A stretch of DNA of 64,000 nt from Leptonemataceae bacterium (lineage in GTDB: Bacteria > Spirochaetota > Leptospiria > Leptospirales > Leptonemataceae). Below the pieces are notes generated by a model. That model saw only the letters and a program-made list of their open reading frames with translations. It was not told the DNA's origin and made no database searches. The stretch's first letter is position 1; every line of letters begins with the position of its first letter. This document shows positions 1,747 to 16,542 of this stretch, piece by piece. The stretch is from the NCBI GenBank assembly GCA_965227295.1, contig OZ245742.1:4544001-4608000 (forward strand), given 5' to 3'. The position numbers and the translations under genes are program-made.

Positions 1747-2329
1747 ATTTGTGGCCACAAAGGCGGAGCATTTGTCGAGGCGCGTGGTGCGGTCGGCGGG
1801 AGTTTACCATGGTAAAATCTTTGGCTGACCCGGGCGTGGATCTCGTACCGGTACGGGGCGTGGGGTTGTGGTGGCCTCGCGCTACGCGCGAGTCTTCGAA
1901 GGTAGGTCCGCGGAAATCAGCCTGCCGGCGAGCGCCGCGCGCCTCGACAAATGCGTGGGGCGTGTGGCCACAGAGAACGGACGCGATCAGCGGAGCGATC
2001 ACGGAAAGAACTCACGGAAAGAACTCACGGAAAGAGGGCAAACATCACATGAGATATTGTTAGAGATTAAAGCACCAGGTGCCGCTGAAATCGAGTCCAC
2101 CTGGCAAGAACCCAACTGGATTATATATACGTCAATCGCGGCGACCAAAGACGTCCACGCTAACATATCTCGGCCGAACTCTAACCCCCGCCGCCCAGGT
2201 CGTGTCGTTTTTCTGGACAATCAAGGGAGTTCGAATTTCACGGCCAGCGCCGAGATCCCGCCGCGCACATCGTCGGTAATGCATCTGTGTATTTTGTGTG
2301 CGACGTCACGAAACCGCCGTACATAAATA

Positions 2330-2373
2330 GCGCGTGCAGGCGAAAACCCACCGGGTCTTCGCCTGCACGCGCG
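2330..2373. terminator. Strong GC hairpin after the three-gene arm operon (mirror copy near 7980-8022)
   Basis: GCGCGTGCAGGCGAA...TTCGCCTGCACGCGC, directly after the stop codon. Confidence 0.65.
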
Positions 2374-2379
2374 CGAACG

Positions 2380-2712
2380 TCACCAGCTCCAGCCGATTTC
2401 CTTTAACTGCTCCTTTTCTTCGGCTACGTCTTCTAACAGGTGGTCGGCGATCCGTTGCCAGTCCACTTTTTCGATGGCCCCCTGGAGTAACTCGCGCAAC
2501 AGTTCGGGAAGTTCGAGCCTGTGCAGATACTCCCGGTGACGATCTCTCAAGTGCGTGGCGAGTTGTTCTTCCTCGCCGTCACGAACACAATCGCAGGCAA
2601 TGCCCATAAACAAATCGTTGGTCGCCGTGTCTTTGTACATGCGCTCAGACACACACCACGTTTCGTAGTTGCCCCAACCGCAATAGTATTCGTTACTCCT
2701 TCCAGCCGTCAT
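2380..2712 (-). CDS. Phage/plasmid-type hypothetical protein (YxGWxNYETW motif), left-arm copy
   Basis: 110 aa with YCGWGNYETW and VDWQRIADHL motifs typical of small phage/plasmid proteins. Confidence 0.65.
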   Translation of the reverse strand: MTAGRSNEYYCGWGNYETWCVSERMYKDTATNDLFMGIACDCVRDGEEEQLATHLRDRHREYLHRLELPELLRELLQGAIEKVDWQRIADHLLEDVAEEKEQLKEIGWSW

Positions 2713-2896
2713 CGCAGAGGACCTTCTCCGGCTCTTTGCCGATCAATTCCCGGAGCGGCGGACGCTTACGCAGGTCCGCCGCAATGAGATTGCGAATGTG
2801 CTGTGCCGTGTTCGCGAAGCGCGTGCGCAATTCGTAGCGCATGTCTTCGCTGATGCCGACCAGATACTGAACTGATTTTCTTCCCGGGTCTTTCAT
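2693..2896 (-). CDS. Small protein, possibly ribbon-helix-helix DNA-binding, left-arm copy
   Basis: MKDPGRKSVQYLVGISEDMRYELRTRFANTAQHIRNLIAADL; ATGA overlap with the upstream stop; AGGAGG SD. Confidence 0.55.
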   Translation of the reverse strand: MKDPGRKSVQYLVGISEDMRYELRTRFANTAQHIRNLIAADLRKRPPLRELIGKEPEKVLCDDGWKE

Positions 2897-3366
2897 GCTT
2901 CGGCCTCCTGGTCCAGGTCGTCGAAGAGCGGGTAGAAACGAGTGCTTTTCGGCGCTCCCAGGTAACACGCGCGGCGGAGTTCCTGGTCCCACTCGCAAGC
3001 GACCTGTTGAAGTTCGAGAAACACTTCTCGATTTACTTTTAAGAGGGAATTCAGCCGGGACGGCTGCGGTACCTTCACCGGGGTGTAGACCTCTTTGAAT
3101 TCACCGGTAGTTTCACTGGCGAGCAGAAACGGAAACCACTCATTGTCCGCCGTGATTTCGAACTGCATTTCGCGAGCGCACAGCCAGCGGCCGTTTGCTT
3201 GCTTGATGAACTGCGAAACGCCCAGGGCGGGGCGAGCGGTTGGACCCTCTCCCAGAAACTCGATGACGAGCAGCGGGTATTCTTCGTGCTCCACGCGGAT
3301 GGACTCGCACTGCTTGAGCGCTTCCATGCCTTCGTGACTGACGATGATTTTCTGAATTGTTTCCAT
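2893..3366 (-). CDS. Hypothetical mobile-element protein (DUF6908-like), left-arm copy
   Basis: 157 aa, GGAGG Shine-Dalgarno, LVIEFLGEGP...EMQFEI pattern; identical to 6986-7459. Confidence 0.7.
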   Translation of the reverse strand: METIQKIIVSHEGMEALKQCESIRVEHEEYPLLVIEFLGEGPTARPALGVSQFIKQANGRWLCAREMQFEITADNEWFPFLLASETTGEFKEVYTPVKVPQPSRLNSLLKVNREVFLELQQVACEWDQELRRACYLGAPKSTRFYPLFDDLDQEAEA

Positions 3367-3527
3367 GTGATAGATTCCTCCGGGGGAAGGCTAAACACAC
3401 GGCGGCATACTGCAAGTTTAAACTCAAGGAAAGTTAATTTTTTGCTGACAAAAGCCCGGAGACATGCTAACATCACGAAATGTTACTCTAGTAAATGTCG
3501 ATGCACGAGGTCGCCCGCTTCTCTCTT

Positions 3528-3600
3528 TCAGGGGTGCGGGATTCGAACCCACTTCCCGGGGGACACAGTCCCGGATGTTAGCCGCATACACCAACCCCTA
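3528..3600 (-). tRNA. tRNA-His(GTG), atypical (no G-1/C73)
   Basis: Cloverleaf with anticodon loop CTGTGTC and GGTTCGAATCC T-arm. Confidence 0.75.
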
Positions 3601-3605
3601 TTGAA

Positions 3606-3679
3606 AATCCCGGCGAGGACTCGAACCCCGATCGACGGGGATAGAAGCCCCGTGCTTTTTCCCGTTAAGCTACCGGGAT
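3606..3679 (-). tRNA. tRNA-Arg(TCT)
   Basis: Anticodon arm CGGGG-CTTCTAT-CCCCG; T-loop TTCGAGT. Confidence 0.85.
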
Positions 3680-3682
3680 ACT

Positions 3683-3755
3683 TCGAAGCGGCTGGAATCG
3701 AACCAACACCAACGGCATATCAGAGCGTCGTTCTCAACCGTTAAACTACGCTTCG
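3683..3755 (-). tRNA. tRNA-Ile(GAT)
   Basis: Loop CTGATAT; acceptor CGAAGCG/CGCTTCG; one mismatch in the anticodon stem. Confidence 0.8.
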
Positions 3756-3759
3756 TATG

Positions 3760-3830
3760 CACCACGTAGGGGAGTCGAACCCCTGCTACTCGATCGACAA
3801 TCGGGCGTTCTACCGTTAAACTAATGCGGC
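3760..3830 (-). tRNA. tRNA-Asp(GTC)
   Basis: Loop TTGTCGA; T-loop TTCGACT; G discriminator. Confidence 0.8.
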
Positions 3831-3836
3831 AAACTG

Positions 3837-3910
3837 TAGGGCCCGCGGGACTCGAACCCGCAATCTCCAGATTCGTAATCTGATGCCTTGATCCATTTGG
3901 CCAGGGCCCT
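3837..3910 (-). tRNA. tRNA-Arg(ACG)
   Basis: TCAGA-TTACGAA-TCTGG arm. Confidence 0.88.
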
Positions 3911-3913
3911 GTG

Positions 3914-3987
3914 TTGGACTTGCAGGACTCGAACCTGCGGCCTTCCGCCTCGGAAGCGGGTGCTCTTTCCCTCTGAGCTAAAGTCCA
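3914..3987 (-). tRNA. tRNA-Arg(CCG)
   Basis: CCGC-TTCCGAG-GCGG arm. Confidence 0.85.
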
Positions 3988-3990
3988 GTG

Positions 3991-4061
3991 TGGAGCCGGT
4001 GGGAATCGAACCCACATCTGTTGCTTGCAAAACAAAGATTCTCCCGTTAAACTACGGCCCC
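3991..4061 (-). tRNA. tRNA-Ala(TGC)
   Basis: Loop TTTGCAA; G3:U70 alanine identity pair present. Confidence 0.85.
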
Positions 4062-4064
4062 GTG

Positions 4065-4138
4065 TACGGGCTGCTGGATTCGAACCAGCGATCTCCTGTT
4101 TGTAAGACAGGCGTTCTGACCTGCTAAACTAAGCCCGT
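4065..4138 (-). tRNA. tRNA-Val(TAC)
   Basis: CCTGT-CTTACAA-ACAGG arm. Confidence 0.9.
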
Positions 4139-4141
4139 GTG

Positions 4142-4213
4142 TTGCGGCGAAAGGAATTGAACCTCCGTAGGACGGGTTATGAGCCCGTTGCATCGCCACT
4201 ATGCTACACCGCA
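4142..4213 (-). tRNA. tRNA-Met(CAT), initiator-like
   Basis: ACGGG-CTCATAA-CCCGT with three consecutive G-C pairs; weak U1-A72 pair. Confidence 0.8.
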
Positions 4214-4219
4214 ATGTTT

Positions 4220-4294
4220 TGCCCGGTGCATGGATTCGAACCTGCAACCAGCGGTTTACAAAACCGCCGCTCTAACCATTGGAGCTAACCGGGC
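4220..4294 (-). tRNA. tRNA-Thr(TGT)
   Basis: GCGGT-TTTGTAA-ACCGC arm. Confidence 0.9.
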
Positions 4295-4297
4295 GTG

Positions 4298-4369
4298 TGC
4301 ATCAGCAGGGAATCGAACCCTGATGATCTGCTTGGAAGACAGACATGTTGGCCGTTACATCACTGATGC
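4298..4369 (-). tRNA. tRNA-Gly(TCC)
   Basis: TCTGT-CTTCCAA-GCAGA arm. Confidence 0.88.
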
Positions 4370-4373
4370 GTAT

Positions 4374-4447
4374 TCGTCGGGTTCGGGATCGAACCGAATT
4401 CTCTCGCTTTTCAGGCGAGCGCTCATGACCACACCTGCTCCCCGACG
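4374..4447 (-). tRNA. tRNA-Phe(GAA)
   Basis: CTCGC-CTGAAAA-GCGAG arm; weak D-arm. Confidence 0.8.
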
Positions 4448-4504
4448 TTCGTCTTGTTCTTCTTAAAGTCACTTTCGCTCATATTTACTCCTTAGTGCGA
4501 AATG

Positions 4505-4576
4505 TGGGTCCGGTGGGATTCGAACCCACGGCCATCCGATTAAAAGTCGGATGCTCTACCCCCGAGCTCCGGACCC
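4505..4576 (-). tRNA. tRNA-Lys(TTT)
   Basis: TCCGA-CTTTTAA-TCGGA arm. Confidence 0.9.
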
Positions 4577-4641
4577 GCTATTCTCTAAATGTCTTCTTGT
4601 CATCTTCGCTCTTCATGGCGTATCTCCTGTTGCTTATGATG

Positions 4642-4714
4642 TGCACCGCAAGAGACTCGAACTCTTCCCTGCTGCATGGCACACAGCTATGCTTGCCACT
4701 AACACCAGCGATGC
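4642..4714 (-). tRNA. tRNA-Gly(GCC)
   Basis: GCTGT-GTGCCAT-GCAGC arm. Confidence 0.8.
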
Positions 4715-4723
4715 GTTTAAACG

Positions 4724-4757
4724 AAAAAACCCTCCAGGGAGTCGGCCGGGGAGGGTT
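4724..4757 (-). terminator. Attenuator terminator of tRNA block 4
   Basis: AACCCTCC...GGAGGGTT followed by TTTT on the minus strand, directly before tRNA-Gly. Confidence 0.85.
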
Positions 4758-4784
4758 CTTCATGAATGCGTTTGCAGATTCTTC

Positions 4785-4901
4785 TCAGCAACGCATGCGC
4801 AGAACTCCTCCGGCGATCCGGCCGTCCTTATGGCCCGCATCGATCCGCATCCCGATAAATCGGGCGGTTCTCACAACCGTTGCTGTTACTGTTAAGCTCA
4901 T
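4785..4901 (-). CDS. Leader peptide of block 4, MSLTVTATVVRTARFIGMRIDAGHKDGRIAGGVLRMRC
   Basis: Codons 4-33 use only the 11 amino acids of the downstream tRNAs. Only synonymous changes in copy B (13977-14093). Confidence 0.85.
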   Translation of the reverse strand: MSLTVTATVVRTARFIGMRIDAGHKDGRIAGGVLRMRC

Positions 4902-4951
4902 GATAGAATACTCAGACGAATCCCTTGTTAAATTTCTTATAAAAATATCTT

Positions 4952-5023
4952 TGCCGACGCAGGGAATCGAAACCTGATTACCGCAGTGAAAGTGCGAGGT
5001 CCTTGCCTTTAGACGACGCCGGC
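4952..5023 (-). tRNA. tRNA-Glu(TTC)
   Basis: Loop CTTTCAC; T-stem imperfect in copy A and intact in copy B. Confidence 0.8.
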
Positions 5024-5119
5024 GATTTGAGTTGAAACGTAGTTAGGTCCACGTTCCCGTTCTCGCGGCATCGCTCCAGCTGACACGTATGTACGTCCTG
5101 CGCGGTTCATTATACTATG

Positions 5120-5190
5120 AGACATGGGTGGGATTCGAACCCACGTAAACGGCTTTGCAGACCGCCCGCTGGCCTCTCGCGCACCATGTC
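5120..5190 (-). tRNA. tRNA-Cys(GCA)
   Basis: GCGGT-CTGCAAA-GCCGT arm; U discriminator. Confidence 0.88.
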
Positions 5191-5285
5191 GGGTTTACTC
5201 TGGCTTGCGGCGGTCGGTAACATCGTTCTCTGTCTTCCATATCTCCCTCATAACACTTGAAAAATAAGCAAAATGCCCATAAACG

Positions 5286-5319
5286 AAAAAAGGCGAGCCG
5301 TTGATCCGGGCTCGCCTTT
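5286..5319 (-). terminator. Attenuator terminator of tRNA block 3
   Basis: AAAGGCGAGCC...GGCTCGCCTTTTTT. Confidence 0.88.
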
Positions 5320-5343
5320 CGCATCCAGCAGGTTACACTGAAT

Positions 5344-5451
5344 CTAAGACGAGCGCATGACTCCCTGAAACACATCACGCTCACAACCCGCATGAATCAT
5401 GCCGGCCTTCGCGAGGTCTCGTTCCGTTCTATGTTGGCGCTTCGGCGACAT
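5344..5451 (-). CDS. Leader peptide of block 3, MSPKRQHRTERDLAKAGMIHAGCERDVFQGVMRSS (alternative start 5400)
   Basis: Adjacent Cys-Glu codons; the stop overlaps GCTCGTCTT, which complements the terminator 5' arm; frame conserved in copy B (13375-13482). Confidence 0.65.
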   Translation of the reverse strand: MSPKRQHRTERDLAKAGMIHAGCERDVFQGVMRSS

Positions 5452-5531
5452 TCCGTTTCCTGAATACTTACTTGGTATTCGACGTCAACAACTTCATAAA
5501 GATTTAAATATTTTTTTCATGGAACTCAATG

Positions 5532-5604
5532 TTCCGGGAGATGGATTCGAACCATCAACCCCCGACTTCAAAGGCCGGTGTTCTACCCGTTGAACTACCC
5601 CGGA
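5532..5604 (-). tRNA. tRNA-Gln(TTG)
   Basis: CCGGC-CTTTGAA-GTCGG arm. Confidence 0.88.
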
Positions 5605-5612
5605 ATGAGTTG

Positions 5613-5684
5613 CACCGGAGGCAGGACTCGAACCTGCATAGAACGCATTAACATTGCGTCGCCTTACCATTAGGCTACTCCGGT
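5613..5684 (-). tRNA. tRNA-Asn(GTT)
   Basis: ACGCA-ATGTTAA-TGCGT arm. Confidence 0.88.
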
Positions 5685-5688
5685 ATTC

Positions 5689-5766
5689 TGGCAGAGGGAA
5701 CAGGATTCGAACCTGTGAACATCGGATTTGGAGTCCGACAGCTTGGACCGCTCGACTCATCCCTCT
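5689..5766 (-). tRNA. tRNA-Trp(CCA), with encoded 3' CCA
   Basis: TCGGA-CTCCAAA-TCCGA arm. Confidence 0.88.
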
Positions 5767-5769
5767 ATG

Positions 5770-5842
5770 TCGGCGTGGTGGGACTTGAACCCACGACCCC
5801 CGGTTCCCGAAACCGGTGCTCTACACCCTGAGCTATACGCCG
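5770..5842 (-). tRNA. tRNA-Pro(CGG)
   Basis: CCGGT-TTCGGGA-ACCGG arm; C1-G72, A73. Confidence 0.9.
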
Positions 5843-5845
5843 GAT

Positions 5846-5882
5846 AATAAAAAACCCCCTCAAGCTTCCGCCGGAGGGGGTT
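5846..5882 (-). terminator. Attenuator terminator of tRNA block 2
   Basis: AACCCCCTC...GAGGGGGTTTTTTATT. Confidence 0.88.
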
Positions 5883-5911
5883 CTCGCGCAAACGCGCTGT
5901 TGCTCAGAGCA

Positions 5912-5983
5912 CTACACGACCACCTCCAGGCAGATGCCGGGATTCTGTTGGGGCCAGTTGCTCTGTGGGAAAAACATGCTCAT
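5912..5983 (-). CDS. Leader peptide of block 2, MSMFFPQSNWPQQNPGICLEVVV
   Basis: PQSNWPQQNP control run matches the Pro/Trp/Asn/Gln tRNAs. Copy B (12689-12754) is 6 nt shorter at the 5' end with the frame preserved. Confidence 0.88.
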   Translation of the reverse strand: MSMFFPQSNWPQQNPGICLEVVV

Positions 5984-6087
5984 CACGTTTACCTGAAGTT
6001 AAGAGACGACGGTTTTCGAGAAATCCTTAACGAAAATATATTTTTTGGAACGAAAGCTTCGCTTTGCCTCGTCTCATCTACCGTATC

Positions 6088-6156
6088 ATGAACGGTATGT
6101 TACTATCATCGCTGTATCTTCTCAGCTCCGGCGGCATGCGGGAGGCGGCGATGTAG
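6088..6156 (+). CDS. Leader peptide of block 1, MNGMLLSSLYLLSSGGMREAAM (alternative start 6097)
   Basis: Ten consecutive Leu/Ser/Tyr codons, all different; identical in copy B (12516-12584, minus strand). Confidence 0.9.
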   Translation: MNGMLLSSLYLLSSGGMREAAM

Positions 6157-6184
6157 TACGCGCAGACAGTTTTCTGTCTTCGAG

Positions 6185-6224
6185 AAGCCCCTCCCGGTGA
6201 ACCCGCGAGGGGCTTTTTGTTTTT
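6185..6224 (+). terminator. Attenuator terminator of tRNA block 1
   Basis: AAGCCCCTC...GAGGGGCTT followed by TTTGTTTTT. Confidence 0.88.
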
Positions 6225-6228
6225 AAAC

Positions 6229-6315
6229 GCGCTGCTTTCCTCCTGCCGGTCTGTAAAGCCGGGGTCGTTAAACGAGGAGGTCGGGAGACGAGAGGTTCAA
6301 ATCCTCGGCAGCGCA
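6229..6315 (+). tRNA. tRNA-Tyr(GTA)-like RNA lacking a normal D-arm
   Basis: Acceptor GCGCTGCT/GGCAGCGC; arm CCGGT-CTGTAAA-GCCGG; T-arm GAGG-TTCAAAT-CCTC. Confidence 0.65.
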
Positions 6316-6319
6316 TACT

Positions 6320-6403
6320 GGATAGATGCCCGAGTGGTAAGGGACCCGTTTCGAAAACGGAGGTCGGCGGTTCGTCGCGTGGGTTCGATTCCTACTCTAT
6401 CCG
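6320..6403 (+). tRNA. tRNA-Ser(CGA)
   Basis: Loop TTCGAAA, long variable arm, G73. Confidence 0.88.
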
Positions 6404-6409
6404 CATTAC

Positions 6410-6493
6410 GGAGGGATGACCGAGTGGTAAGGTATCCGGTTGGAAGCCGGTGGTCATCGATGAGATGCGAAGGTTCGATTCCTTCTCCCTCCG
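6410..6493 (+). tRNA. tRNA-Ser(GGA)
   Basis: Loop TTGGAAG, long variable arm, G73. Confidence 0.88.
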
Positions 6494-6499
6494 AGAAAT

Positions 6500-6584
6500 G
6501 GAACAGTGGCCGAGAGGTAAGGCAGCGGTCCGCTAAACCGTGGTCGTCGTAACAGACGCGGAGGTTCGATTCCTCCCTGTTCCG
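6500..6584 (+). tRNA. tRNA-Ser(GCT)
   Basis: GCGGT-CCGCTAA-ACCGT arm (C33), long variable arm. Confidence 0.85.
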
Positions 6585-6587
6585 CAG

Positions 6588-6662
6588 CGAGCGATAGCCC
6601 AATCAGGCAGAGGCAGTCGACTTAAAATCGGCAGAGTGCGGGTTCGATTCCCGCTCGCTCAA
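6588..6662 (+). tRNA. tRNA-Leu(TAA), short variable loop
   Basis: GTCGA-CTTAAAA-TCGGC arm. Confidence 0.82.
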
Positions 6663-6665
6663 AAC

Positions 6666-6738
6666 GCATCCGTAGCCCAACGGTAGAGGCACCAGGTCGA
6701 GAGCCTGGTCAGTGCAGGTTCGAATCCGGCCGGATGCA
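6666..6738 (+). tRNA. tRNA-Leu(GAG), short variable loop
   Basis: CCAGG-TCGAGAG-CCTGG arm (C33). Confidence 0.75.
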
Positions 6739-6741
6739 CAC

Positions 6742-6814
6742 GGGGACGTAGCCCAACGGCAGAGGCAGCACGCTCAGAACGTGTCCAGTGTGAGTTCGAA
6801 TCTCGCCGCCCCCA
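6742..6814 (+). tRNA. tRNA-Leu(CAG), short variable loop
   Basis: GCACG-CTCAGAA-CGTGT arm. Confidence 0.82.
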
Positions 6815-6985
6815 TAGAGTCTCCACTGAAGAGATTTGCGACCTCGTGCATCGACATTTACTAGAGTAACATTTCGTGATGTTAGCATGTCTCCGGGCTT
6901 TTGTCAGCAAAAAATTAACTTTCCTTGAGTTTAAACTTGCAGTATGCCGCCGTGTGTTTAGCCTTCCCCCGGAGGAATCTATCAC

Positions 6986-7459
6986 ATGGAAACAATTCAG
7001 AAAATCATCGTCAGTCACGAAGGCATGGAAGCGCTCAAGCAGTGCGAGTCCATCCGCGTGGAGCACGAAGAATACCCGCTGCTCGTCATCGAGTTTCTGG
7101 GAGAGGGTCCAACCGCTCGCCCCGCCCTGGGCGTTTCGCAGTTCATCAAGCAAGCAAACGGCCGCTGGCTGTGCGCTCGCGAAATGCAGTTCGAAATCAC
7201 GGCGGACAATGAGTGGTTTCCGTTTCTGCTCGCCAGTGAAACTACCGGTGAATTCAAAGAGGTCTACACCCCGGTGAAGGTACCGCAGCCGTCCCGGCTG
7301 AATTCCCTCTTAAAAGTAAATCGAGAAGTGTTTCTCGAACTTCAACAGGTCGCTTGCGAGTGGGACCAGGAACTCCGCCGCGCGTGTTACCTGGGAGCGC
7401 CGAAAAGCACTCGTTTCTACCCGCTCTTCGACGACCTGGACCAGGAGGCCGAAGCATGA
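6986..7459 (+). CDS. Hypothetical protein (DUF6908-like), right-arm copy
   Basis: Identical to 2893-3366. Confidence 0.7.
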   Translation: METIQKIIVSHEGMEALKQCESIRVEHEEYPLLVIEFLGEGPTARPALGVSQFIKQANGRWLCAREMQFEITADNEWFPFLLASETTGEFKEVYTPVKVPQPSRLNSLLKVNREVFLELQQVACEWDQELRRACYLGAPKSTRFYPLFDDLDQEAEA

Positions 7460-7659
7460 AAGACCCGGGAAGAAAATCAGTTCAGTATCTGGTCGGCATC
7501 AGCGAAGACATGCGCTACGAATTGCGCACGCGCTTCGCGAACACGGCACAGCACATTCGCAATCTCATTGCGGCGGACCTGCGTAAGCGTCCGCCGCTCC
7601 GGGAATTGATCGGCAAAGAGCCGGAGAAGGTCCTCTGCGATGACGGCTGGAAGGAGTAA
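7456..7659 (+). CDS. Small putative RHH DNA-binding protein, right-arm copy
   Basis: ATGA coupling to the upstream gene; AGGAGG SD. Confidence 0.55.
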   Translation: MKDPGRKSVQYLVGISEDMRYELRTRFANTAQHIRNLIAADLRKRPPLRELIGKEPEKVLCDDGWKE

Positions 7660-7972
7660 CGAATACTATTGCGGTTGGGGCAACTACGAAACGTGGTGTG
7701 TGTCTGAGCGCATGTACAAAGACACGGCGACCAACGATTTGTTTATGGGCATTGCCTGCGATTGTGTTCGTGACGGCGAGGAAGAACAACTCGCCACGCA
7801 CTTGAGAGATCGTCACCGGGAGTATCTGCACAGGCTCGAACTTCCCGAACTGTTGCGCGAGTTACTCCAGGGGGCCATCGAAAAAGTGGACTGGCAACGG
7901 ATCGCCGACCACCTGTTAGAAGACGTAGCCGAAGAAAAGGAGCAGTTAAAGGAAATCGGCTGGAGCTGGTGA
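7640..7972 (+). CDS. Phage/plasmid-type hypothetical protein, right-arm copy
   Basis: Identical to 2380-2712. Confidence 0.65.
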   Translation: MTAGRSNEYYCGWGNYETWCVSERMYKDTATNDLFMGIACDCVRDGEEEQLATHLRDRHREYLHRLELPELLRELLQGAIEKVDWQRIADHLLEDVAEEKEQLKEIGWSW

Positions 7973-8316
7973 CGTTCGCGCGCGTGCAGGCGAAGACCCG
8001 GTGGGTTTTCGCCTGCACGCGCTATTTATGTACGGCGGTTTCGTGACGTCGCACACAAAATACACAGATGCATTACCGACGATGTGCGCGGCGGGATCTC
8101 GGCGCTGGCCGTGAAATTCGAACTCCCTTGATTGTCCAGAAAAACGACACGACCTGGGCGGCGGGGGTTAGAGTTCGGCCGAGATATGTTAGCGTGGACG
8201 TCTTTGGTCGCCGCGATTGACGTATATATAATCCAGTTGGGTTCTTGCCAGGTGGACTCGATTTCAGCGGCACCTGGTGCTTTAATCTCTAACAATATCT
8301 CATGTGATGTTTGCCC

Positions 8317-9328
8317 TCTTTCCGTGAGTTCTTTCCGTGAGTTCTTTCCGTGAGTTCTTTCCGTGAGTTCTTTCCGTGAGTTCTTTCCGTGAGTTCTTTC
8401 CGTGAGTTCTTTCCGTGAGTTCTTTCCGTGAGTTCTTTCCGTGAGTTCTTTCCGTGAGTTCTTTCCGTGAGTTCTTTCCGTGAGTTCTTTCCGTGAGTTC
8501 TTTCCGTGAGTTCTTTCCGTGAGTTCTTTCCGTGAGTTCTTTCCGTGAGTTCTTTCCGTGAGTTCTTTCCGTGAGTTCTTTCCGTGAGTTCTTTCCGTGA
8601 GTTCTTTCCGTGAGTTCTTTCCGTGAGTTCTTTCCGTGAGTTCTTTCCGTGAGTTCTTTCCGTGAGTTCTTTCCGTGAGTTCTTTCCGTGAGTTCTTTCC
8701 GTGAGTTCTTTCCGTGAGTTCTTTCCGTGAGTTCTTTCCGTGAGTTCTTTCCGTGAGTTCTTTCCGTGAGTTCTTTCCGTGAGTTCTTTCCGTGAGTTCT
8801 TTCCGTGAGTTCTTTCCGTGAGTTCTTTCCGTGAGTTCTTTCCGTGAGTTCTTTCCGTGAGTTCTTTCCGTGAGTTCTTTCCGTGAGTTCTTTCCGTGAG
8901 TTCTTTCCGTGAGTTCTTTCCGTGAGTTCTTTCCGTGAGTTCTTTCCGTGAGTTCTTTCCGTGAGTTCTTTCCGTGAGTTCTTTCCGTGAGTTCTTTCCG
9001 TGAGTTCTTTCCGTGAGTTCTTTCCGTGAGTTCTTTCCGTGAGTTCTTTCCGTGAGTTCTTTCCGTGAGTTCTTTCCGTGAGTTCTTTCCGTGAGTTCTT
9101 TCCGTGAGTTCTTTCCGTGAGTTCTTTCCGTGAGTTCTTTCCGTGAGTTCTTTCCGTGAGTTCTTTCCGTGAGTTCTTTCCGTGAGTTCTTTCCGTGAGT
9201 TCTTTCCGTGAGTTCTTTCCGTGAGTTCTTTCCGTGAGTTCTTTCCGTGAGTTCTTTCCGTGAGTTCTTTCCGTGAGTTCTTTCCGTGAGTTCTTTCCGT
9301 GAGTTCTTTCCGTGAGTTCTTTCCGTGA
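8317..9328. repeat. Perfect 13-bp tandem repeat (TCTTTCCGTGAGT), ~78 copies
   Basis: 1012 bp of invariant units; the mirror site 1999-2035 has ~2.8 units. Confidence 0.97.
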
Positions 9329-9356: not shown

Positions 9357-11340
9357 GTCGCGGTAGAACGGCCGGTTGCCCGGCCGCCCCCGCACAGATC
9401 CCGGCGTGCGGTATTCTCGCACCGGGCTCTTCGAAAGCACTCGCTTCCACATAAAGTCAATTCAGAGTAAGTCGCAACTGAGATACTGGTCGTTCCATGA
9501 TGCGCGGTTTTTCGATCCGGTAGTGCGCCATCAGATCCCTCAGCCCCTGCCAGTCCAGACTCCGGCGCTGACTGCGCCGATTGAGCCACTTGTACAGATT
9601 CATTTCCACCTGATAGTAGAAGCTTCGTATACTCTTGTAGTTGCATTGGACGCCATAATAGTTATAGTATCCACGCAGCCGGGAGTTCAGAAGATTGAAG
9701 AACCTGCGCATGGGTAGATGCCGATTCGCTTTAATCCACTGCTTCACATTCTGGATCGACGCATGCAATCGCTTTGGAGCGGTGCGACGCGGAACCCACC
9801 AGAACCCCTTTCGAGAACGAGCCCAGCGGTATTCAAAGCCTAGAAATACGAACGCCTCACGCCCGGTATTGAACTTCGCGCGGAAGCCCGGGCGCTCGAA
9901 ACTTTTCACTCCTGACTTTTCCGGCGCCAGTTCCAGACCAAACTTTCGCAAACGTTTTCCAAGCGTCGCATAGAATTTCAGCGCATCGTCTTTGGATTCA
10001 AAGGCGCAAACAAAATCGTCCGCGTATCGACACATATAGGCCGGTCTCTTGCAGTGCTTCTTCACCACTTTCTCGAACCAGAGGTCCAGTACGTAATGAA
10101 GATAGACGTTCGCCAGAACCGGACTGATCACGCCGCCTTGAGGAGTCCCAGCGGTCGGGCGCGAGACCTGACCGTTTACCTCCAGCACGCCTGCTTTCAG
10201 CCACTTGCGAATCAGACCGAGAAAGGCCCGATCATCGATTCGTTGCTCCAGCATTCGCATCAACCAATCATGGTCAATGTTGTCGAAGAAACCCTTGATG
10301 TCGGCTTCCACAATCCAGCCGAGCTTCCCCGGACTCAAAGTTGAACTCAGAGTCTTCGAAGCCTCACGCGGACCGGTGTTCGGCCGATAACCATACGAAC
10401 ACGACAGGAAGTCTTGCTCATAGATCGCTTCAAGGATACGCGTCGCGCATGTTTGTACCAGTTTGTCTTCGAGGGCCGGCAATCCAAGCGGACGTTGTTT
10501 TCCGTCCGCTTTCGGGATAAAGACCCTGCGAATCAGTTTTGTTCGGTATCGTTTCTGTTTTAAGCGTTCCACCAGATCCCCGACATTTTCCGTAAGGTTC
10601 GCTTCGTAGTCGCGAAACGTTTCACGGTCCACGCCCGGAGCCGCCCGGCGATTCATTCCTGCGAACGAATCTTCGAGATTCATCTGGTTGAGCATCCCAT
10701 ACAGATTACGAAACAGATGTTTCTTACTCCTCCTCGCTTTATTTGCTATTGCCCGTAGTGAGGTTTGCATCAGTTGTTCCGATCCTGCCGTCCGGCTGAT
10801 GTTGACTCTGCGAGCTGCGTACTTTCGTCAGCCCCTTCCCCGATCATCGCGCATCGCACGCGAAGACCGAACCCGTCGAAACTCCATTCGAGTTTCATTC
10901 GATTCTGTGGACGGCTCTCCCGCCCTCTGAGTACTATGGGCTGATCCGACTCCCCGTTGATCATCATTCTTCCTTGTTCATTCGGTCAGAATTACCTTCG
11001 CTATCGTCGAAGGAACCAACGGGGTCTCCCGGGTTCCACGATGTTTCTCTGCATACATGCCGCGCTCAAGCGACCCCGACAGACCTCCAGAATCTCGCTA
11101 AAACGATTCCTTTGTGCTGGTTTCCATCTGACCAATGATGTCACCGTCTGCATCTATGGCATTTTACGAGGCTCAACAGCTTCCGGGAGTGTGGACTCCC
11201 CTACGGCCTGCATGCTTCCCTGTGTACGCTTCGTGTGGCGGTTACCCGCTTCCACGCAACACTCGGTAGAAGTTGTTCGCTAAACTTTACTTCATATGGA
11301 CTTTCACCTTATCAGAAACATCGGGCTTTGCCCGGCGCAC
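9357..11340 (-). mobile_element. Group II intron (~1984 nt), probably bacterial class E
   Basis: 5' GTGCG at 11340; domain V/VI GAGCCCGGTGCGAGAATACCGCACGCCGGGATCTGTGCGGGGGCGG...CTACCGCGAC; the exons rejoin to the intact left-arm site at 1970/1971. Confidence 0.93.
9457..10770 (-). CDS. ltrA: Group II intron reverse transcriptase/maturase without endonuclease domain
   Basis: RPLGLP, SYGYRP, DIKGFFD, GTPQGG and YADD motifs, followed by maturase domain X. Confidence 0.95.
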   Translation of the reverse strand: MQTSLRAIANKARRSKKHLFRNLYGMLNQMNLEDSFAGMNRRAAPGVDRETFRDYEANLTENVGDLVERLKQKRYRTKLIRRVFIPKADGKQRPLGLPALEDKLVQTCATRILEAIYEQDFLSCSYGYRPNTGPREASKTLSSTLSPGKLGWIVEADIKGFFDNIDHDWLMRMLEQRIDDRAFLGLIRKWLKAGVLEVNGQVSRPTAGTPQGGVISPVLANVYLHYVLDLWFEKVVKKHCKRPAYMCRYADDFVCAFESKDDALKFYATLGKRLRKFGLELAPEKSGVKSFERPGFRAKFNTGREAFVFLGFEYRWARSRKGFWWVPRRTAPKRLHASIQNVKQWIKANRHLPMRRFFNLLNSRLRGYYNYYGVQCNYKSIRSFYYQVEMNLYKWLNRRSQRRSLDWQGLRDLMAHYRIEKPRIMERPVSQLRLTLN

Positions 11341-11680: not shown

Positions 11681-11799
11681 CACATGGCGGCATATTACAA
11701 GTTTAAACTCAAGGAAAGTTAATTTTTTGCTGACAAAATCCTGGAGACATGCTAACATCACGCAATGTTACTCTAGTAAATGTCGATGCACGAGATCGC
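11681..11799. repeat. Truncated left arm of tRNA array B
   Basis: Diverged copy of ~3396-3514. Confidence 0.9.
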
Positions 11800-11822
11800 A
11801 AATCTCTTCAATGGAGACTATA

Positions 11823-12443
11823 TGGGGACGGTGAGACTCGAACTCACACTAGACACGTTCTGAGCGTGCTGCCTCTACCGCGAATGTAAGCAGTTGCTCC
11901 CGGGTGGTCGCAACTGCGGCGGTTCAGACTGCTTCGCAGTCTGGGCTACGGATGCGTTTCGAGCGAGCGGGAATCGAACCCGCACTCTGCCGATTTTAAG
12001 TCGACTGCCTCTGCCTGATTGGGCTATCGCTCGCTGCGGAACAGGGAGGAATCGAACCTCCGCGTCTGTTACGACGACCACGGTTTAGCGGACCGCTGCC
12101 TTACCTCTCGGCCACTGTTCCAATTTCCGGAGGGAGAAGGAATCGAACCTTCGCGCCTGTTAAGACGACCGCCGGCTTCCAACCGGATACCTTACCACTC
12201 GGTCATCCCTCCACGCTGCGGATAGAGTAGGAATCGAACCCACGCGACGAACCGCCGACCTCCGTTTTCGAAACGGGTCCCTTACCACTCGGGCATCTAT
12301 CCAGTATGCGCTGCCGAGGATTTGAACCTCTCGTCACCCGACCTCCTCGTTTAACGAGTAAACTGTACCTTGCTGCGCAAGCCTTGACTTACTACCGCCT
12401 TTCAGTTGCTGGCGTTTACAGACCGGCAGGAGGAAAGCAGCGC
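11823..12443 (-). tRNA. Array B block 1: Tyr-like (insertion), Ser CGA, Ser GGA, Ser GCT, Leu TAA, chimeric Leu GAG/CAG (insertion)
   Basis: Homologous to 6229-6814 in inverted orientation; leader at 12516-12584 and terminator retained. Confidence 0.88.
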
Positions 12444-12823
12444 GTTTAAAAAGAAAAAGCCCCTCGCGGGTTTACCGGGAGGGGCTTCTCGAAGACAGAG
12501 AACTGTCCGCGCGTACTACATCGCCGCCTCCCGCATGCCGCCGGAGCTGAGAAGATACAGCGATGATAGTAACATACCGTTCATGATACGGTACATGAGA
12601 CGAGGCAAAGCGAAGCTTTCGTTCCAAAAAATATATTTTCGTTAAGAATTTCTCGAAAACCGTCGTCTCTTAACTTCAGGTAAACGTGATGCACTTCCCA
12701 CAGAGCAACTGGCCCCAACAGAATCCCGGCATCTGCCTGGAGGTGGTCGTGTAGTGCTCTGAGCAACAGCGCGTTTGCGCGAGAACCCCCTCCGGCGGAA
12801 GCTTGAGGGGGTTTTTTATTATC

Positions 12824-13294
12824 CGGCGTGTAGCTCAGGGTGTAGAGCACCGGTATCGGGAACCGGGGGTCGTGGGTTCAAGTCCCACCACGCCGACATA
12901 GAGGGATGAGTCGAGCGGTCCAGGCTGTCGGACTCCAAATCCGATGTTCACAGGTTTTTGTGCATGGATGCACTTATGCCGCGGAGGACAGGAAGTCCGG
13001 GAGCGGCCGAATCCTGAAAGAGGAAGATGCTACGCATCTTTCATCTTACTGACGCGCTGCGCTTGTCCCTCTGCCAGAATACCGGAGTAGCCTAATGGTA
13101 AGGCGACGCACTGTTAATGCGTTCTATGCAGGTTCGAGTCCTGCCTCCGGTGCAACTCATTCCGGGGTAGTTCAACGGGTAGAACACCGGCCTTTGAAGT
13201 CGGGGGCGCAAATAGACTTTTGCCTTATGGCAAAAGTCGGCGGTTCGGAGTTGTGCGGCAACGCACAACTCCGGGTCCTCACCATCTCCCGGAG
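12824..13294 (+). tRNA. Array B block 2: Pro CGG, Trp CCA (two insertions), Asn GTT, Gln TTG (T-arm replaced by an insertion)
   Basis: Homologous to 5532-5842; leader at 12689-12754 and terminator retained. Confidence 0.88.
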
Positions 13295-13635
13295 CATTGA
13301 GTTCTATGAAAAAAATATTTAAATCTTTATGAAGTTGTTGACGTCGAATACCGAGTAAGTAATCAGGAAACGGAATGTCGCAGAAGCGCCTACAGACAAC
13401 GGAACGAGACCTCGCGAAGGCCGGCATGATTCATGCGGGTTGTGAGCGTGATGTGTTTCAGGGAGTCATGCGCTCGTCTTAGATTCAGTGTAACCTGCTG
13501 GATGCGAAAGGCGAGCCCGGATCAACGGCTCGCCTTTTTTCGTTTATGGGCATTTTGCTTATTTTTCAAGTGTTATGAGGGAGATATGGAAGACAGAGAA
13601 CGATGTTACCGACCGCCGCAAGCCAGAGTAAACCC

Positions 13636-13926
13636 GACATGGTGCGCGAGAGGCCAGCGGGCGGTCTGCAAAGCCGTTTAACGTGGGTTTGTGTGCAGGG
13701 ATGCACTTATGCCGCGAAGGACAGGATGTCCGGGAGCGGCCGAATCCCACCCATGTCTCATAGTACAATGAACCGCGCAGGACGTACATATGTATCAGCC
13801 GGAGCGATGCCGCGAGAGCGGGAACGTGGATCAAGCTACGTTTCAACTCAAATCGCCGGCGTCGTCTAACGGCAAGGACGCTGCACTTTCACTGCGGTAA
13901 TCGGGGTTCGATTCCCCGCGTCGGCA
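13636..13926 (+). tRNA. Array B block 3: Cys GCA (51-nt insertion), Glu TTC
   Basis: Homologous to 4952-5190; leader at 13375-13482 and terminator retained. Confidence 0.88.
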
Positions 13927-14163
13927 AAGGTATTTTCATAAGAAATTTAACAATGGATTCGTCTGAGTATTCTATCATGAGCTTAACAGTAACAGCAACG
14001 GTTGTAAGGACCGCCCGATTTATCGGGATGCGGATCGATGCGGGCCATAAGGACGGCCGGATCGCCGGAGGAGTTCTGCGCATGCGTTGCTGAGAAGAAT
14101 CTACAGACGCATTCATGAAGAACCCTCCCCGGCCGACGCCCTGGAGGGTTTTTTCGTTTATAC

Positions 14164-15529
14164 GCATCGCTGGTGTCAGTGGCAAGCATAGCTGTGTGCC
14201 ATGCAGCAGGGAAGAGTTCGAGTCTCTTGCGGTGCACATTACAGAAAACAGGAGGTACGCCATGAAGAGCGAAGATGACAAGAAGACGTTTAGAGAATAG
14301 CGGGTCCGGAGCTCGGGGGTAGAGCATCCGACTTTTAATCGGATGGCGATCGGTTGAGTGCTTCGCACTCTCATCTTACTCCCGCCTTTCAGTTGGGGGT
14401 TCGAATCCCACCGGACCCACATTTCAAGTAGCGAGGTTAATATGAACGAAAGTGACTTTAAGAATAATAAGACGGAACGTCGGGGAGCAGGTGTGGTCAT
14501 TGCATCCGGTTGAAGCCCGGAGGAATTCGGTTCGATCCCGAGCCCGACGAATACGCATCAGTGATGTAACGGTCAACATGTCTGTCTTCCAAACAGATCA
14601 TCAGGGTTTTTGGCCATGGATGGCCTTATGCCGCGGAGGACAGGAGGTCCGAGAGCGGCCGATTCCCTGCTGATGCACACGCCCGGTTAGCTCCAATGGT
14701 TAGAGCGGCGGTTTTGTGAACCGCTGGTTGCAGGTTCGAATCCGTGCACCGGGCAAAACATTGCGGTGTAGCATAGTGGCGATGCAGCGGGCTCATAACC
14801 CGTCCTACGGAGGTTCAATTCCTTCCGCCGCAACATACGGGCTTAGGACGCAATATAAACGCCTGTCTTACAAACAGGAGATCGCTGGTTTTTGTGCATG
14901 GATGCACTTATGCCGCGGAGGCCAGGAGGGCCGAGAGCGGCCGAATCCGGCAGCCCGTACATGGGGCCGTAGTTTAACGGGAGAATCTTTGTTTTGCAAA
15001 CAAGGGACGTCGGTTCGATTCCGACCGGTTCCACAAATTGGACTTTAGCTCAGAGGGACAGAGCGCCCGTTTCCGAAGCGGTAGGCCGCAGGTTTTTGGC
15101 CACGGATGGCCTTATGCCGCGAAGGACAGGAGGTCCGAGAGCGGCCGAGTCCTGCAAGTCCAACACAGGGCCCTGGCCAAATGGATCAAGGCATCAGATT
15201 ACGAATCTGAAGATTGCGGGTTCGAGTCCCGCGGGCTCTACATGCCGCGTTAGTTTAATGGTAGAACTCCTGATTGTCTCTCAGGGGGCGAGGGTTCGAT
15301 TCCCTCACGTGGTGCATACGAAGCGTAGTTTAACGGTTGAGAACGACGGTCTGATATGCCGTTGGTTAAAGACGAAGATTCAGCGTTATGCGTGAACGCA
15401 TAACGCTGGGTTCGATTCCAGCCGCTTCGAAGCATCCCGGTAATCGGGATTTTCATAAGGGGTTGGTGTATGTGGCTAACATCCGGGATTGTGTCTCCCG
15501 GGCAGTGGGTTCGAATCCCGCACCCCTGA
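14164..15529 (+). tRNA. Array B block 4: Gly GCC, Lys*, Phe, Gly TCC*, Thr, Met, Val*, Ala, Arg CCG*, Arg ACG, Asp, Ile*, (Arg TCT internally deleted), His; * = insertion
   Basis: Homologous to 3528-4714; leader at 13977-14093 and terminator retained. Confidence 0.88.
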
Positions 15530-15542
15530 AAGAGAGAAGCGG

Positions 15543-15943
15543 GCGATCTCATGCATCGATATTTACTAGAGTAACATTGCATGATGTTAGCATGTCGCCA
15601 GGTTTTTGTCAGCAAAAAATTAACTTTCCTTGAGTTTAAACTTGTAATATGCCGCCATGTATTTAGCCTTCCCCCGGAGGAAACTATCACATGGAAACAA
15701 TTCAGAAAATCATCGTCAGTCACGAAGGCATGGAAGCGCTCAAACTGTGCGAGTCCATCCGCGTGGAACACGAAGAATACCCTCTGCTCGTCATAGAGTT
15801 TCTGGGACAGGGGCCCACCGCTCGCCCCGCCGTGGGCGTTTCGCAGTTCATCAAGCAAGCGGGTAAACATCAGCCGGATATGCGCGGCAATCTCCCCTTC
15901 CACAGACAACTTTTTCGATCTACGTTTCGCTGGCTCCGCAGAA
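15543..15943. repeat. Internally deleted right arm of array B
   Basis: 15543-15860 matches 6838-~7155; 15865-15943 matches 11417-11495. Confidence 0.9.
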
Positions 15944-16542
15944 ATAAATGCGAGAAACCGGCGGACGTCCGCGAGGCCTGCGTCCGCGAGGCGCTGAAGA
16001 TCATTGAAAAACACGGCGTGGAAAATCTGAGCCTGCGCCAGGTCGCCCGGCGCCTGAAGCTTTCTCATCAGGCCCCGTACAAACACTTCGCGAGCAAAGA
16101 TCATCTGCTCGCGGAAATCATTGAGCGCGGTTTTGTCACGTTCGCGGAGTATCTCGAACGCGACGCAAAATCGAAGCAGGCCAATCGCAACCTGCGCAGC
16201 CTCGGCAAGGCTTACATCCGCTTCGCCCTGGACTATCCGCTCTACTACCGGCTCATGTTCTCGTCGCCGCATCCGCCGGCGAAAGAACATCCCGGCATGG
16301 CAGCCCGCAGCAAGGCCACCTTCGAGATCTTACGCGATCGCGTCCGCGACATGCAGTCCATGACCGGAGCGCGGCGCGACGTGGACGCGGAGGCCCTGTT
16401 CATCTGGTCGACCATGCACGGCCTTGCTTCGATTCTTTCCTGGGAACACGTAAACGGACTGCCGATCGGCGGCCGGGACCGCCGACGGTACATTACGCAC
16501 GTATTGAATCGCATCGGGGATGCGTTGCGATTCAATGATTGA
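15691..16542 (+). CDS. Chimeric ORF: arm-protein N-terminus plus arm terminus, in frame with a TetR/AcrR regulator (TetR part ~15950-16542)
   Basis: TetR HTH LSLRQVARRLKLSHQAPYKHFASKDHLL and WSTMHG motif; native TetR start not visible. Confidence 0.75.
   Translation: METIQKIIVSHEGMEALKLCESIRVEHEEYPLLVIEFLGQGPTARPAVGVSQFIKQAGKHQPDMRGNLPFHRQLFRSTFRWLRRNKCEKPADVREACVREALKIIEKHGVENLSLRQVARRLKLSHQAPYKHFASKDHLLAEIIERGFVTFAEYLERDAKSKQANRNLRSLGKAYIRFALDYPLYYRLMFSSPHPPAKEHPGMAARSKATFEILRDRVRDMQSMTGARRDVDAEALFIWSTMHGLASILSWEHVNGLPIGGRDRRRYITHVLNRIGDALRFND

Follow-up and report, generated by a model that had tools for sequence, protein, structure and literature searches.

The subject of this analysis is a short element found within a dense accessory array of transfer RNA (tRNA) genes in a Leptonemataceae bacterium. 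The window, i.e., the whole stretch of DNA that was analyzed, comprises 64,000 nucleotides (nt) of contig OZ245742.1 (positions 4,544,001 to 4,608,000), and the element, referred to as leader 2, consists of a short open reading frame (ORF), in which Pro, Gln, Asn, and Trp codons are abundant, and a following intrinsic terminator, located directly ahead of the genes for tRNA-Pro, tRNA-Trp, tRNA-Asn, and tRNA-Gln. Leader 2 is probably a functional ribosome-dependent attenuator of the trp/his type, gating a block of four tRNA genes and not biosynthetic genes; we infer that its ORF is translated, that read-through is driven by ribosome stalling, and that a natural signal, for which candidates are given below, acts through this stalling. 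An initial annotation of the sequence had proposed a translated, codon-matched leader with a switchable terminator at this site. The ORF, codon run, terminator, and tRNA genes on which that proposal was based were all recovered in place, and its core is supported by two sister attenuators in the same array, by a homologous array in another genome, and by a scan of 105 regions upstream of tRNA genes.

Codon content and predicted switch of leader 2

The leader 2 peptide, MMSMFFPQSNWPQQNPGICLEVVV, is encoded in 22-24 codons depending on which of the in-frame start codons is used (Table 1). Ten consecutive codons, CCA CAG AGC AAC TGG CCC CAA CAG AAT CCC (5968-5939), form the putative sensing run, in which Pro, Gln, Asn, and Trp occupy nine of the ten positions, with the two synonymous codons of Gln and those of Asn all represented, in agreement with the initial annotation. 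The terminator is absent from the list of a simple terminator scanner because its loop is longer than the scanner allows, and its U run stops 6 nt ahead of tRNA-Pro. Leader 2 combines several structural features of the attenuator class, among them a short ORF, a cluster of putative regulatory codons, and a terminator ahead of the tRNA genes.

The codon content of the run was compared with small ORFs taken from 3 Mb of simulated sequence, generated from a second-order model of the array. Nine Pro/Trp/Asn/Gln codons in ten were found in none of 27,503 simulated small ORFs, the maximum being eight, reached three times; in the remainder of the window, no small ORF out of 523 exceeds seven in ten. 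Furthermore, a pattern for adjacent tRNA-Trp and tRNA-Asn genes was scanned over genome contigs and returned 30 loci, among them L008, a contig of a Leptospirales metagenome-assembled genome. In a blind scan of 105 tRNA-upstream regions, drawn from the first 18 kb of the window and from these 30 loci and each represented by its best block-matching ORF window, ranks 1-5 are held by leader 2, leader 1 (in both copies of the array, A and B), and leader 3 of the window and by leader 1 of L008, and leader 2 of L008 is ranked eighth. No convincing block-matched leader was found among the 30 loci outside L008; the leader system is specific to this array family and is not general to tRNA arrays.

The leader 2 RNA has a folding energy of -64.4 kcal/mol (z = -3.6) and is more stable than all 200 of 200 shuffled sequences. 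In the minimum-energy fold of the ribosome-free, full-length leader, region 1 pairs with region 2 and the terminator is kept; for the free leader, this 1:2 hairpin (5965-5950 with region 2), at -26.2 kcal/mol, is the state of lowest energy. In constrained folds, region 2, which overlaps the end of the ORF, pairs with the terminator 5′ arm, which bears out the complementarity between these two segments that had been annotated. The resulting 2:3 antiterminator has an energy of -35.2 kcal/mol in isolation and is mutually exclusive with the terminator in silico. Folding under ribosome occlusion, which the initial annotation had named as a way to check the switch, was performed with the 31 nt around each A-site codon set unpairable and with transcripts ending directly before the terminator 3′ arm, mimicking the moment of decision. 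With the A site at codons 1-15, the antiterminator occupies 8 of the 12 nt of the terminator 5′ arm, at codon 16 it occupies 5 of the 12, and from codon 17 to the stop codon it occupies none. The sensing run ends with codon 15, and such agreement between the switch boundary and the end of the run is observed in all six leaders analyzed, three in the window and three in L008.

In the proposed mechanism, minus-strand transcription would begin upstream of 5986. When no ribosome is engaged, region 1 would pair with region 2, the terminator would form, and the polymerase would halt 3-7 nt before tRNA-Pro; when translation proceeds smoothly to the stop codon, the ribosome would cover region 2 and the terminator would form again. 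When charged Pro, Gln, Asn, or Trp tRNA is scarce, the ribosome would stall within the sensing run and cover region 1, and the free region 2 would pair with the terminator 5′ arm, resulting in read-through into the Pro-Trp-Asn-Gln block. As candidate signals, we consider depletion of or damage to tRNAs, drugs that target the ribosome, and starvation for amino acids.

Table 1. Positions of the tRNA array, the leaders, and their predicted elements in the window.
Feature	Position	Strand	Description
Leader 2 ORF	5912-5986	-	In-frame starts GTG 5986, ATG 5983, and ATG 5977; TAG stop 5914-5912
Sensing run of leader 2	5939-5968	-	Ten codons, PQSNWPQQNP; overlaps region 1 (5965-5950)
Region 2 of leader 2	5919-5934	-	Antiterminator 5′ strand; includes GGAGG; overlaps the final ORF codons
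Region 3 of leader 2	5867-5881	-	Terminator 5′ arm, as paired with region 2 in constrained folds
Intrinsic terminator of leader 2	5849-5885	-	G+C-rich hairpin and U run; -25.1 kcal/mol in isolation
Block 2	5531-5842	-	tRNA-Pro(CGG) 5842-5769; tRNA-Trp(CCA) 5766-5689; tRNA-Asn(GTT) 5684-5612; tRNA-Gln(TTG) 5604-5531
Copy B of leader 2, terminator, and tRNA-Pro	12686-12897	+	ORF 12686-12754; tRNA-Pro 12824-12897
Leader 1 attenuator	6088-6224	+	ORF 6088-6156; run 6100-6129; region 2 6138-6149; terminator 6182-6224
Leader 3 attenuator	4724-4901	-	ORF 4901-4785, 38 codons; region 2 4823-4801; terminator 4761-4724
tRNA array A	3528-6814		26 tRNA genes covering 19 amino acids; 20 minus-strand and 6 plus-strand genes
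Copy B	11959-15530		Inverted, decaying second copy of the array

Sister leaders and the homologous array L008

Two further predicted attenuators of the same architecture are present in the array. Leader 1, with the peptide MNGMLLSSLYLLSSGGMREAAM, starts approximately 100 nt from leader 2 in divergent orientation, an arrangement already described in the initial annotation. Leu and Ser account for nine of the ten codons of its run, the tenth being Tyr, and these nine positions are nine different codons; runs of this type were found in 2 of 27,503 simulated ORFs. The block downstream (6229-6814) comprises a Tyr-like RNA, three Ser tRNAs, and three Leu tRNAs, and leader 1 contains a cognate codon for six of the six block tRNAs (null model, 239/47,756). 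Leader 3, with the peptide MSLTVTATVVRTARFIGMRIDAGHKDGRIAGGVLRMRC, precedes a block of 14 tRNAs for Gly, Lys, Phe, Thr, Met, Val, Ala, Arg, Asp, Ile, and His. These 11 amino acids are all represented in the leader and provide 34 of its 38 residues (null model, 2/27,166), and cognate codons are present for all 14 of the 14 tRNAs, including three Arg and two Gly isoacceptors (null model, 100/27,166). In the occlusion folds, leader 1 switches after codon 14, the final Ser codon of its run, and leader 3 switches after codon 27. With three block-matched attenuators, the whole accessory array appears to be demand-driven, block by block.

The array in L008 is an independent homologue, approximately 80% identical to that of the window and diverged from it. 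The same tRNA blocks are present and partly rearranged: Pro(CGG)-Trp-Asn-Gln comprises the same four genes in the same order and is co-directional with Ser-Ser-Ser-Leu-Leu-Leu, and the large block is located on the opposite strand. By blastn, leader 1 is 82% identical over 233 nt and the leader 2 terminator is 91% identical over 34 nt, and little of leaders 2 and 3 is aligned beyond the terminators. All three leader ORFs are open in L008, their stop positions and amino-acid composition are kept, and their peptides have diverged. Leader 2 of L008, MIRYSLQSFWPQNNLSSGNTREVVV, carries a 6-nt in-frame insertion and stops at the same aligned position, and the indels between the two leader 2 sequences are multiples of three; this preservation of the ORF argues for translation of the predicted leader. 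The initial annotation had drawn the same conclusion from copy B, in which the leader is indeed 6 nt shorter and in frame; as support for translation this is weak, because copies A and B are nearly identical. In leader 1 of L008, MNGKLLSSLSLYGSSNMREVAM, the Leu, Ser, and Tyr residues are reshuffled yet kept, with the run LLSSLSLYGSS. Leader 3 of L008, MNTMRKINAVITAAAQLRAKHFDAGHKIAGFVQGDSIT, has only a short core (DAGHK, IAG) in common with leader 3 of the window, and 32 of its 38 residues belong to the block set (null model, 9/27,166), with cognate codons for 13 of 13 tRNAs (null model, 232/27,166).

The predicted switch is likewise kept in L008, where the occlusion folds form the antiterminator at codons 1-17 in leader 2, 2-14 in leader 1, and 1-29 in leader 3 and then lose it. 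The 1:2 structure of leader 2 differs from that in the window and is equivalent to it. The antiterminator core common to both genomes consists of GGAGG paired with CCUCC or CCUCU and of GG paired with CC, and the outer pairs differ. At the 29 other loci, six blastn queries revealed no DNA similarity to the leader-terminator segments; the only matches fall on the tRNA-Lys gene inside the Lys/Phe query, apart from one match with an E value of 0.01 in locus L030.

The comparison with L008 also bears on a different explanation, in which leader 2 is a nascent-peptide arrest element of the tnaC or erm type, whose W-P peptide stalls the ribosome on a small molecule or drug independently of tRNA supply. 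Arrest peptides that are already known often contain Trp and Pro, and the leader 2 peptides of the window and L008 share Q-S-x-W-P-Q and the C-terminal E-V-V-V. However, conservation at the C-terminal codons is accounted for by RNA pairing, since these codons overlap with region 2, conservation does not extend to the residues on either side of the W-P-Q core, and leaders 1 and 3 have the same architecture with different peptides, composition and not sequence being what is conserved. An arrest element is accordingly regarded as most improbable.

Two further features of the array touch these leaders. The Tyr-like RNA (6229-6314, plus strand), located between the leader 1 terminator and the first Ser gene, possesses a GTA anticodon loop, an acceptor stem, and a T arm and is devoid of a normal D arm, in place of which a 5′ segment pairs with part of a long variable region. 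Its score against the Rfam tRNA-Sec model is 21.6 bits, and it receives no call from ARAGORN; its copy B version is interrupted by a 50-nt insertion, and it is kept in L008 (10469-10557), with four compensatory pairs among 27 predicted pairs. Downstream of block 2, a strong terminator comes after a conserved ORF of 34-35 codons (..DLAK..H..CER..F.G..; window 5451-5286, minus strand; L008 9313-9150). The ATG of this ORF is preceded in both genomes, at a distance of only approximately 9 nt, by TTGAC(G/T)-N16-TATTCA, a spacing compatible with a near-leaderless transcript. This fourth terminator (5319-5286) was considered as a further attenuator and rejected, since the occlusion folds display no clean ribosome-dependent switch in either genome; the ORF ahead of it displays no clear codon enrichment. 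The ORF and terminator together could either serve to terminate the block 2 operon or act as a fourth attenuator, in that case for Cys, Glu, and the large block.

Several observations weigh against leader 2 being a codon-sensing attenuator. The first concern the start of the leader. No clear Shine-Dalgarno sequence lies ahead of leaders 1-3, as had been annotated for leaders 1 and 2, which the initial annotation took as possibly leaderless transcripts; the best that leader 2 offers is a weak AGG, 8 nt upstream of the ATG at 5983, and neighboring mini-ORFs in the array carry strong ones (GAGGAGG, AAGGAG), so the host uses them. A promoter scan gave no sigma-70-like site for leader 2. In L008, TTGACC and TAATAT hexamers were recognized by eye directly ahead of the same-frame GTG of leader 2 and would fit a leaderless or near-leaderless start; the window sequence upstream of leader 2 is not alignable with this region. 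Lacking Shine-Dalgarno sequences and a mapped promoter, the ORFs might be accidental and the hairpins ordinary, constitutively leaky terminators, insulators, or processing signals between tRNA units, particularly as G+C-rich hairpins are common near tRNA genes and the fourth terminator follows a conserved ORF with neither a clean switch nor clear codon enrichment. Such an origin is very unlikely, because enrichment of this kind is never or almost never reached by simulated ORFs and is found here in three leaders, because the ORFs, stops, and composition are kept in L008 although blastn aligns little of leaders 2 and 3 outside the terminators, and because the antiterminator boundary falls where the sensing run ends in six of six cases.

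Further points on the same side concern conservation and folding. Only one outside lineage is available, the other 29 Trp-Asn loci being without such leaders, and across these two lineages the antiterminator displays conserved pairing potential and one change from G-C to G-U, with no true compensatory pairs. Leader 2 of L008 is less pure than its counterpart, with at best 6 of 10 consecutive codons, and 7 of 25 over its whole length (null model, 2,744/43,018), and contains seven Tyr/Ser/Leu codons, which may be tied to the Tyr/Ser/Leu block located downstream on the same strand. In the full-length equilibrium fold, the leader 2 antiterminator wins with the A site at codons 7-8 only; the switch would thus rely on co-transcriptional order, as in trp.

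The last group of adverse points concerns the codons themselves. The Pro codons of leader 2 (CCA, CCC, and CCC; CCA in L008) are not decoded by tRNA-Pro(CGG) under standard wobble rules, a caveat that the initial annotation had raised for the window and that extends to L008. Regulatory codons and block 2 supply match for four of four tRNAs at the amino-acid level and for three of four at the anticodon level in both genomes, and 9,556 of 46,141 random windows equal the latter figure. Likewise, CTA and TCA in leader 1 are read by no array tRNA. A match at the amino-acid level only fits sensing of a whole isoacceptor family or loss of tRNAs from a larger ancestral array. These incomplete matches (Pro, CTA, TCA) would also suit a general sensor of slowed translation, responding, for instance, to ribosome-targeting antibiotics, in which the attenuator is the same and the codon content is secondary: in the folds, ribosome slowing anywhere in codons 1-15 frees region 2, and the trn operon of Anabaena PCC 7120, the only long array studied experimentally, is induced by translation inhibitors of any class according to the accessible parts of two reports (PMC8421152; PMC10272220). 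A general sensor needs no specific codons, yet the three leaders mirror their own blocks, and their composition is kept in L008 although the peptide sequences drift. We consider it rather unlikely, and attenuation by codon-specific stalling is retained as the probable function of leader 2.

The tRNA array and its surroundings

ARAGORN identifies 41 tRNA genes in the window, 26 in array A and 15 in copy B. With 26 genes in 3,287 nt, array A satisfies the density definition of an L-array (tRNA array unit), for which the available parts of two surveys give a threshold of at least 20 genes at a density of at least 2 per kb (PMC4758250; PMC8421152). Its G+C content is 0.52-0.55, compared with approximately 0.61 in the flanks. 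Array A is bracketed by a 1516-nt inverted repeat, 100% identical between its arms (1999-3514 and 6838-8353), which carries a DUF6908 gene. The L008 array is likewise bracketed by a DUF6908 homologue that is 31% identical (6246-6680 and 11764-12198). Low G+C content, the inverted-repeat bracket, a decaying copy, and a nearby group II intron are indirect signs that the array may be horizontally acquired and supernumerary to the tRNA set of the host.

The structure model of the DUF6908 protein is confident, with a predicted local distance difference test score (pLDDT) of 92.6, and yielded no significant fold match in the PDB (best E value 0.018; template-modelling scores of 0.29-0.34). A word-based search returned three proteins, all on the contig of the window, and HMMER returned 34 proteins with E values up to 0.001. 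Two further paralogue loci, P0002 and P0003, are located elsewhere on the source contig and may hold further arrays. When an alignment of four DUF6908 sequences was compared with genome contigs, 43 stretches were matched and none was confirmed, and no close relatives were found in this way. A third copy in the window (15691-16542) consists of the N-terminal part fused in frame to a TetR-family regulator; this fusion marks the boundary between copy B and the adjoining ordinary chromosomal genes, whose G+C content is higher. The blastn comparison of 3400-7500 with plasmids and phages gave no matches larger than one or two tRNAs, i.e., at most 5% of the query, and a protein search with a 46-residue ORF of copy B that contains the leader 3 peptide gave no matches.

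Each arm of the inverted repeat contains a promoter-like site (CTGACA, 17 nt, TAACAT, with a TG extension; 3445-3473 on the plus strand and 6907-6879 on the minus strand), which faces into the array and is antisense to the tRNA genes at its outer ends. The end of the inverted repeat is adjoined by a perfect tandem repeat of a 13-nt unit in approximately 78 copies (8317-9328), a stub of 2.8 copies in reverse complement is found at the other arm (1999-2035), and a gene for a group II intron reverse transcriptase/maturase (9457-10770) adjoins the tandem repeat.

Insertions are found in the tRNA arrays of both genomes. An insertion of approximately 52-60 nt that forms a hairpin recurs in five tRNA genes of copy B, the counterparts of Trp, Cys, Gly-TCC, Val, and Arg-CCG, each time at an identical point inside the T loop (GGTT / insert / CGAATCC; 12954-13013, 13687-13746, 14606-14662, 14888-14947, and 15111-15148). 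The element has no other occurrence in the window or the 30 loci and could be a miniature mobile element specific to the T loop or an insert resembling an intron. In L008, a 270-nt insert between tRNA-Gly and tRNA-Thr (8084-8352, minus strand) displays tRNA-like acceptor and T-arm sequences at both ends and may be an interrupted tRNA gene; a comparison of L008 7000-11300 with Rfam assigned no family to it.

Finally, mini-ORFs end at or run into single tRNA genes on the minus strand of the window (4616-4578, 4482-4423, 5125-5009, and approximately 5240-5190), with counterparts in L008 (8670-8640, 8535-8465, and 9103-9020). They contain the codon of the adjoining tRNA and mostly have a strong Shine-Dalgarno sequence, which the pre-Glu copy of the window lacks. 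The pre-Lys mini-ORF (MKSEDDKKTFRE in the window, MKNESDKVS in L008), the pre-Phe mini-ORF (MSESDFKK... and MSESDFRK..., respectively), and the pre-Glu mini-ORF (...AGAMPRERE... in both genomes) are conserved in L008, and the pre-Cys mini-ORF, MEDRERCY, is found in the window only. The mini-ORFs may couple translation to tRNA maturation.

Relation to known systems and proposed role

The closest known counterparts are the trpL, hisL, leuL, thrL, ilvL, and pheL attenuators, which have the same short ORF with regulatory codons, the same 1:2, 2:3, and 3:4 segments, and a terminator before the genes, and in which a stalled ribosome selects the antiterminator, as predicted here. They differ in that the targets here are tRNAs and not enzymes and that the leaders would sense four, three, and eleven amino acids; furthermore, no clear Shine-Dalgarno sequence is present here and no Rfam leader family is matched. 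A cmscan of 4400-6400 against Rfam with E values up to 1 gave 17 matches, all to tRNAs or at chance level, and neither a leader family nor a T-box was among them.

Leader-peptide attenuators are also found before aminoacyl-tRNA synthetase genes, as in pheST of E. coli. Those of alaS, thrS, and trpS in Streptomyces lividans are described as such in the accessible text of PMC8079986. These leaders likewise sense charged tRNA and control the same decoding step, although each governs a charging enzyme for a single amino acid, whereas the target here is the tRNA itself, in blocks, within an accessory array. T-box elements also attenuate transcription according to tRNA status, for genes of charging and amino-acid supply, but bind uncharged tRNA through one specifier codon without translation; the sensing element here is an ORF. 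In the erm, cat, vmlR, and bmrCD leaders, stalling in a short upstream ORF similarly remodels the downstream RNA; there, a drug-bound ribosome and a specific nascent peptide are required, whereas here composition and not sequence is conserved.

Among long arrays, the trn operon of Anabaena PCC 7120 comprises approximately 26 densely packed tRNA genes, appears horizontally acquired, and is silent until induced when translation is impaired; its control is exerted at the promoter through the ribbon-helix-helix repressor TrcR and direct repeats, according to the portions available of the reports cited above (PMC8421152; PMC10272220). By contrast, the elements predicted here are internal, one per block, and codon-specific, and the window array has no DNA similarity to the Anabaena operon beyond single tRNAs. 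The accessible text of PMC8421152 makes no mention of a leader, attenuation (searched as attenuat-), a terminator, or an upstream ORF, that of PMC10272220 makes no mention of a leader peptide, attenuation (likewise attenuat-), or a terminator, and the accessible parts of two array surveys (PMC4758250; PMC12803027) make no mention of leaders, attenuation, or terminators. No description of leader-peptide attenuation of tRNA genes was found in the full-text literature, a scope that leaves out most subscription journals. As far as these searches show, leader-peptide attenuation has so far been described only for genes of amino-acid biosynthesis or transport, aminoacyl-tRNA synthetases, and resistance. 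What is new here is the target, i.e., the tRNA blocks of an accessory array, together with leaders that spell the amino acids of each block.

More tentatively, and with less than even confidence, the array, which is probably mobile, may be viewed as a self-regulating, demand-driven tRNA supply module, in which each block is gated by its own leader listing its amino acids and tRNAs are made only upon stalling. Such stalling could result from cleavage or inactivation of tRNAs by anticodon nucleases and toxins or from ribosome-targeting drugs. A second layer might be provided by the mini-ORFs ahead of Cys, Glu, Lys, and Phe, where a translating ribosome could block tRNA maturation unless it had stalled earlier.

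The regulation of individual bacterial tRNA genes is largely unknown, as stated in the available part of PMC8421152. If the attenuator interpretation is correct, leader 2 and its sister elements would provide direct feedback from decoding demand to tRNA supply, in an unusual design in which up to eleven amino acids are sensed within 38 codons. It would also explain how costly accessory tRNA arrays stay silent yet useful, and would offer a simple model of how such arrays might counter tRNA-targeting toxins and translation inhibitors, a role that has been proposed for them.

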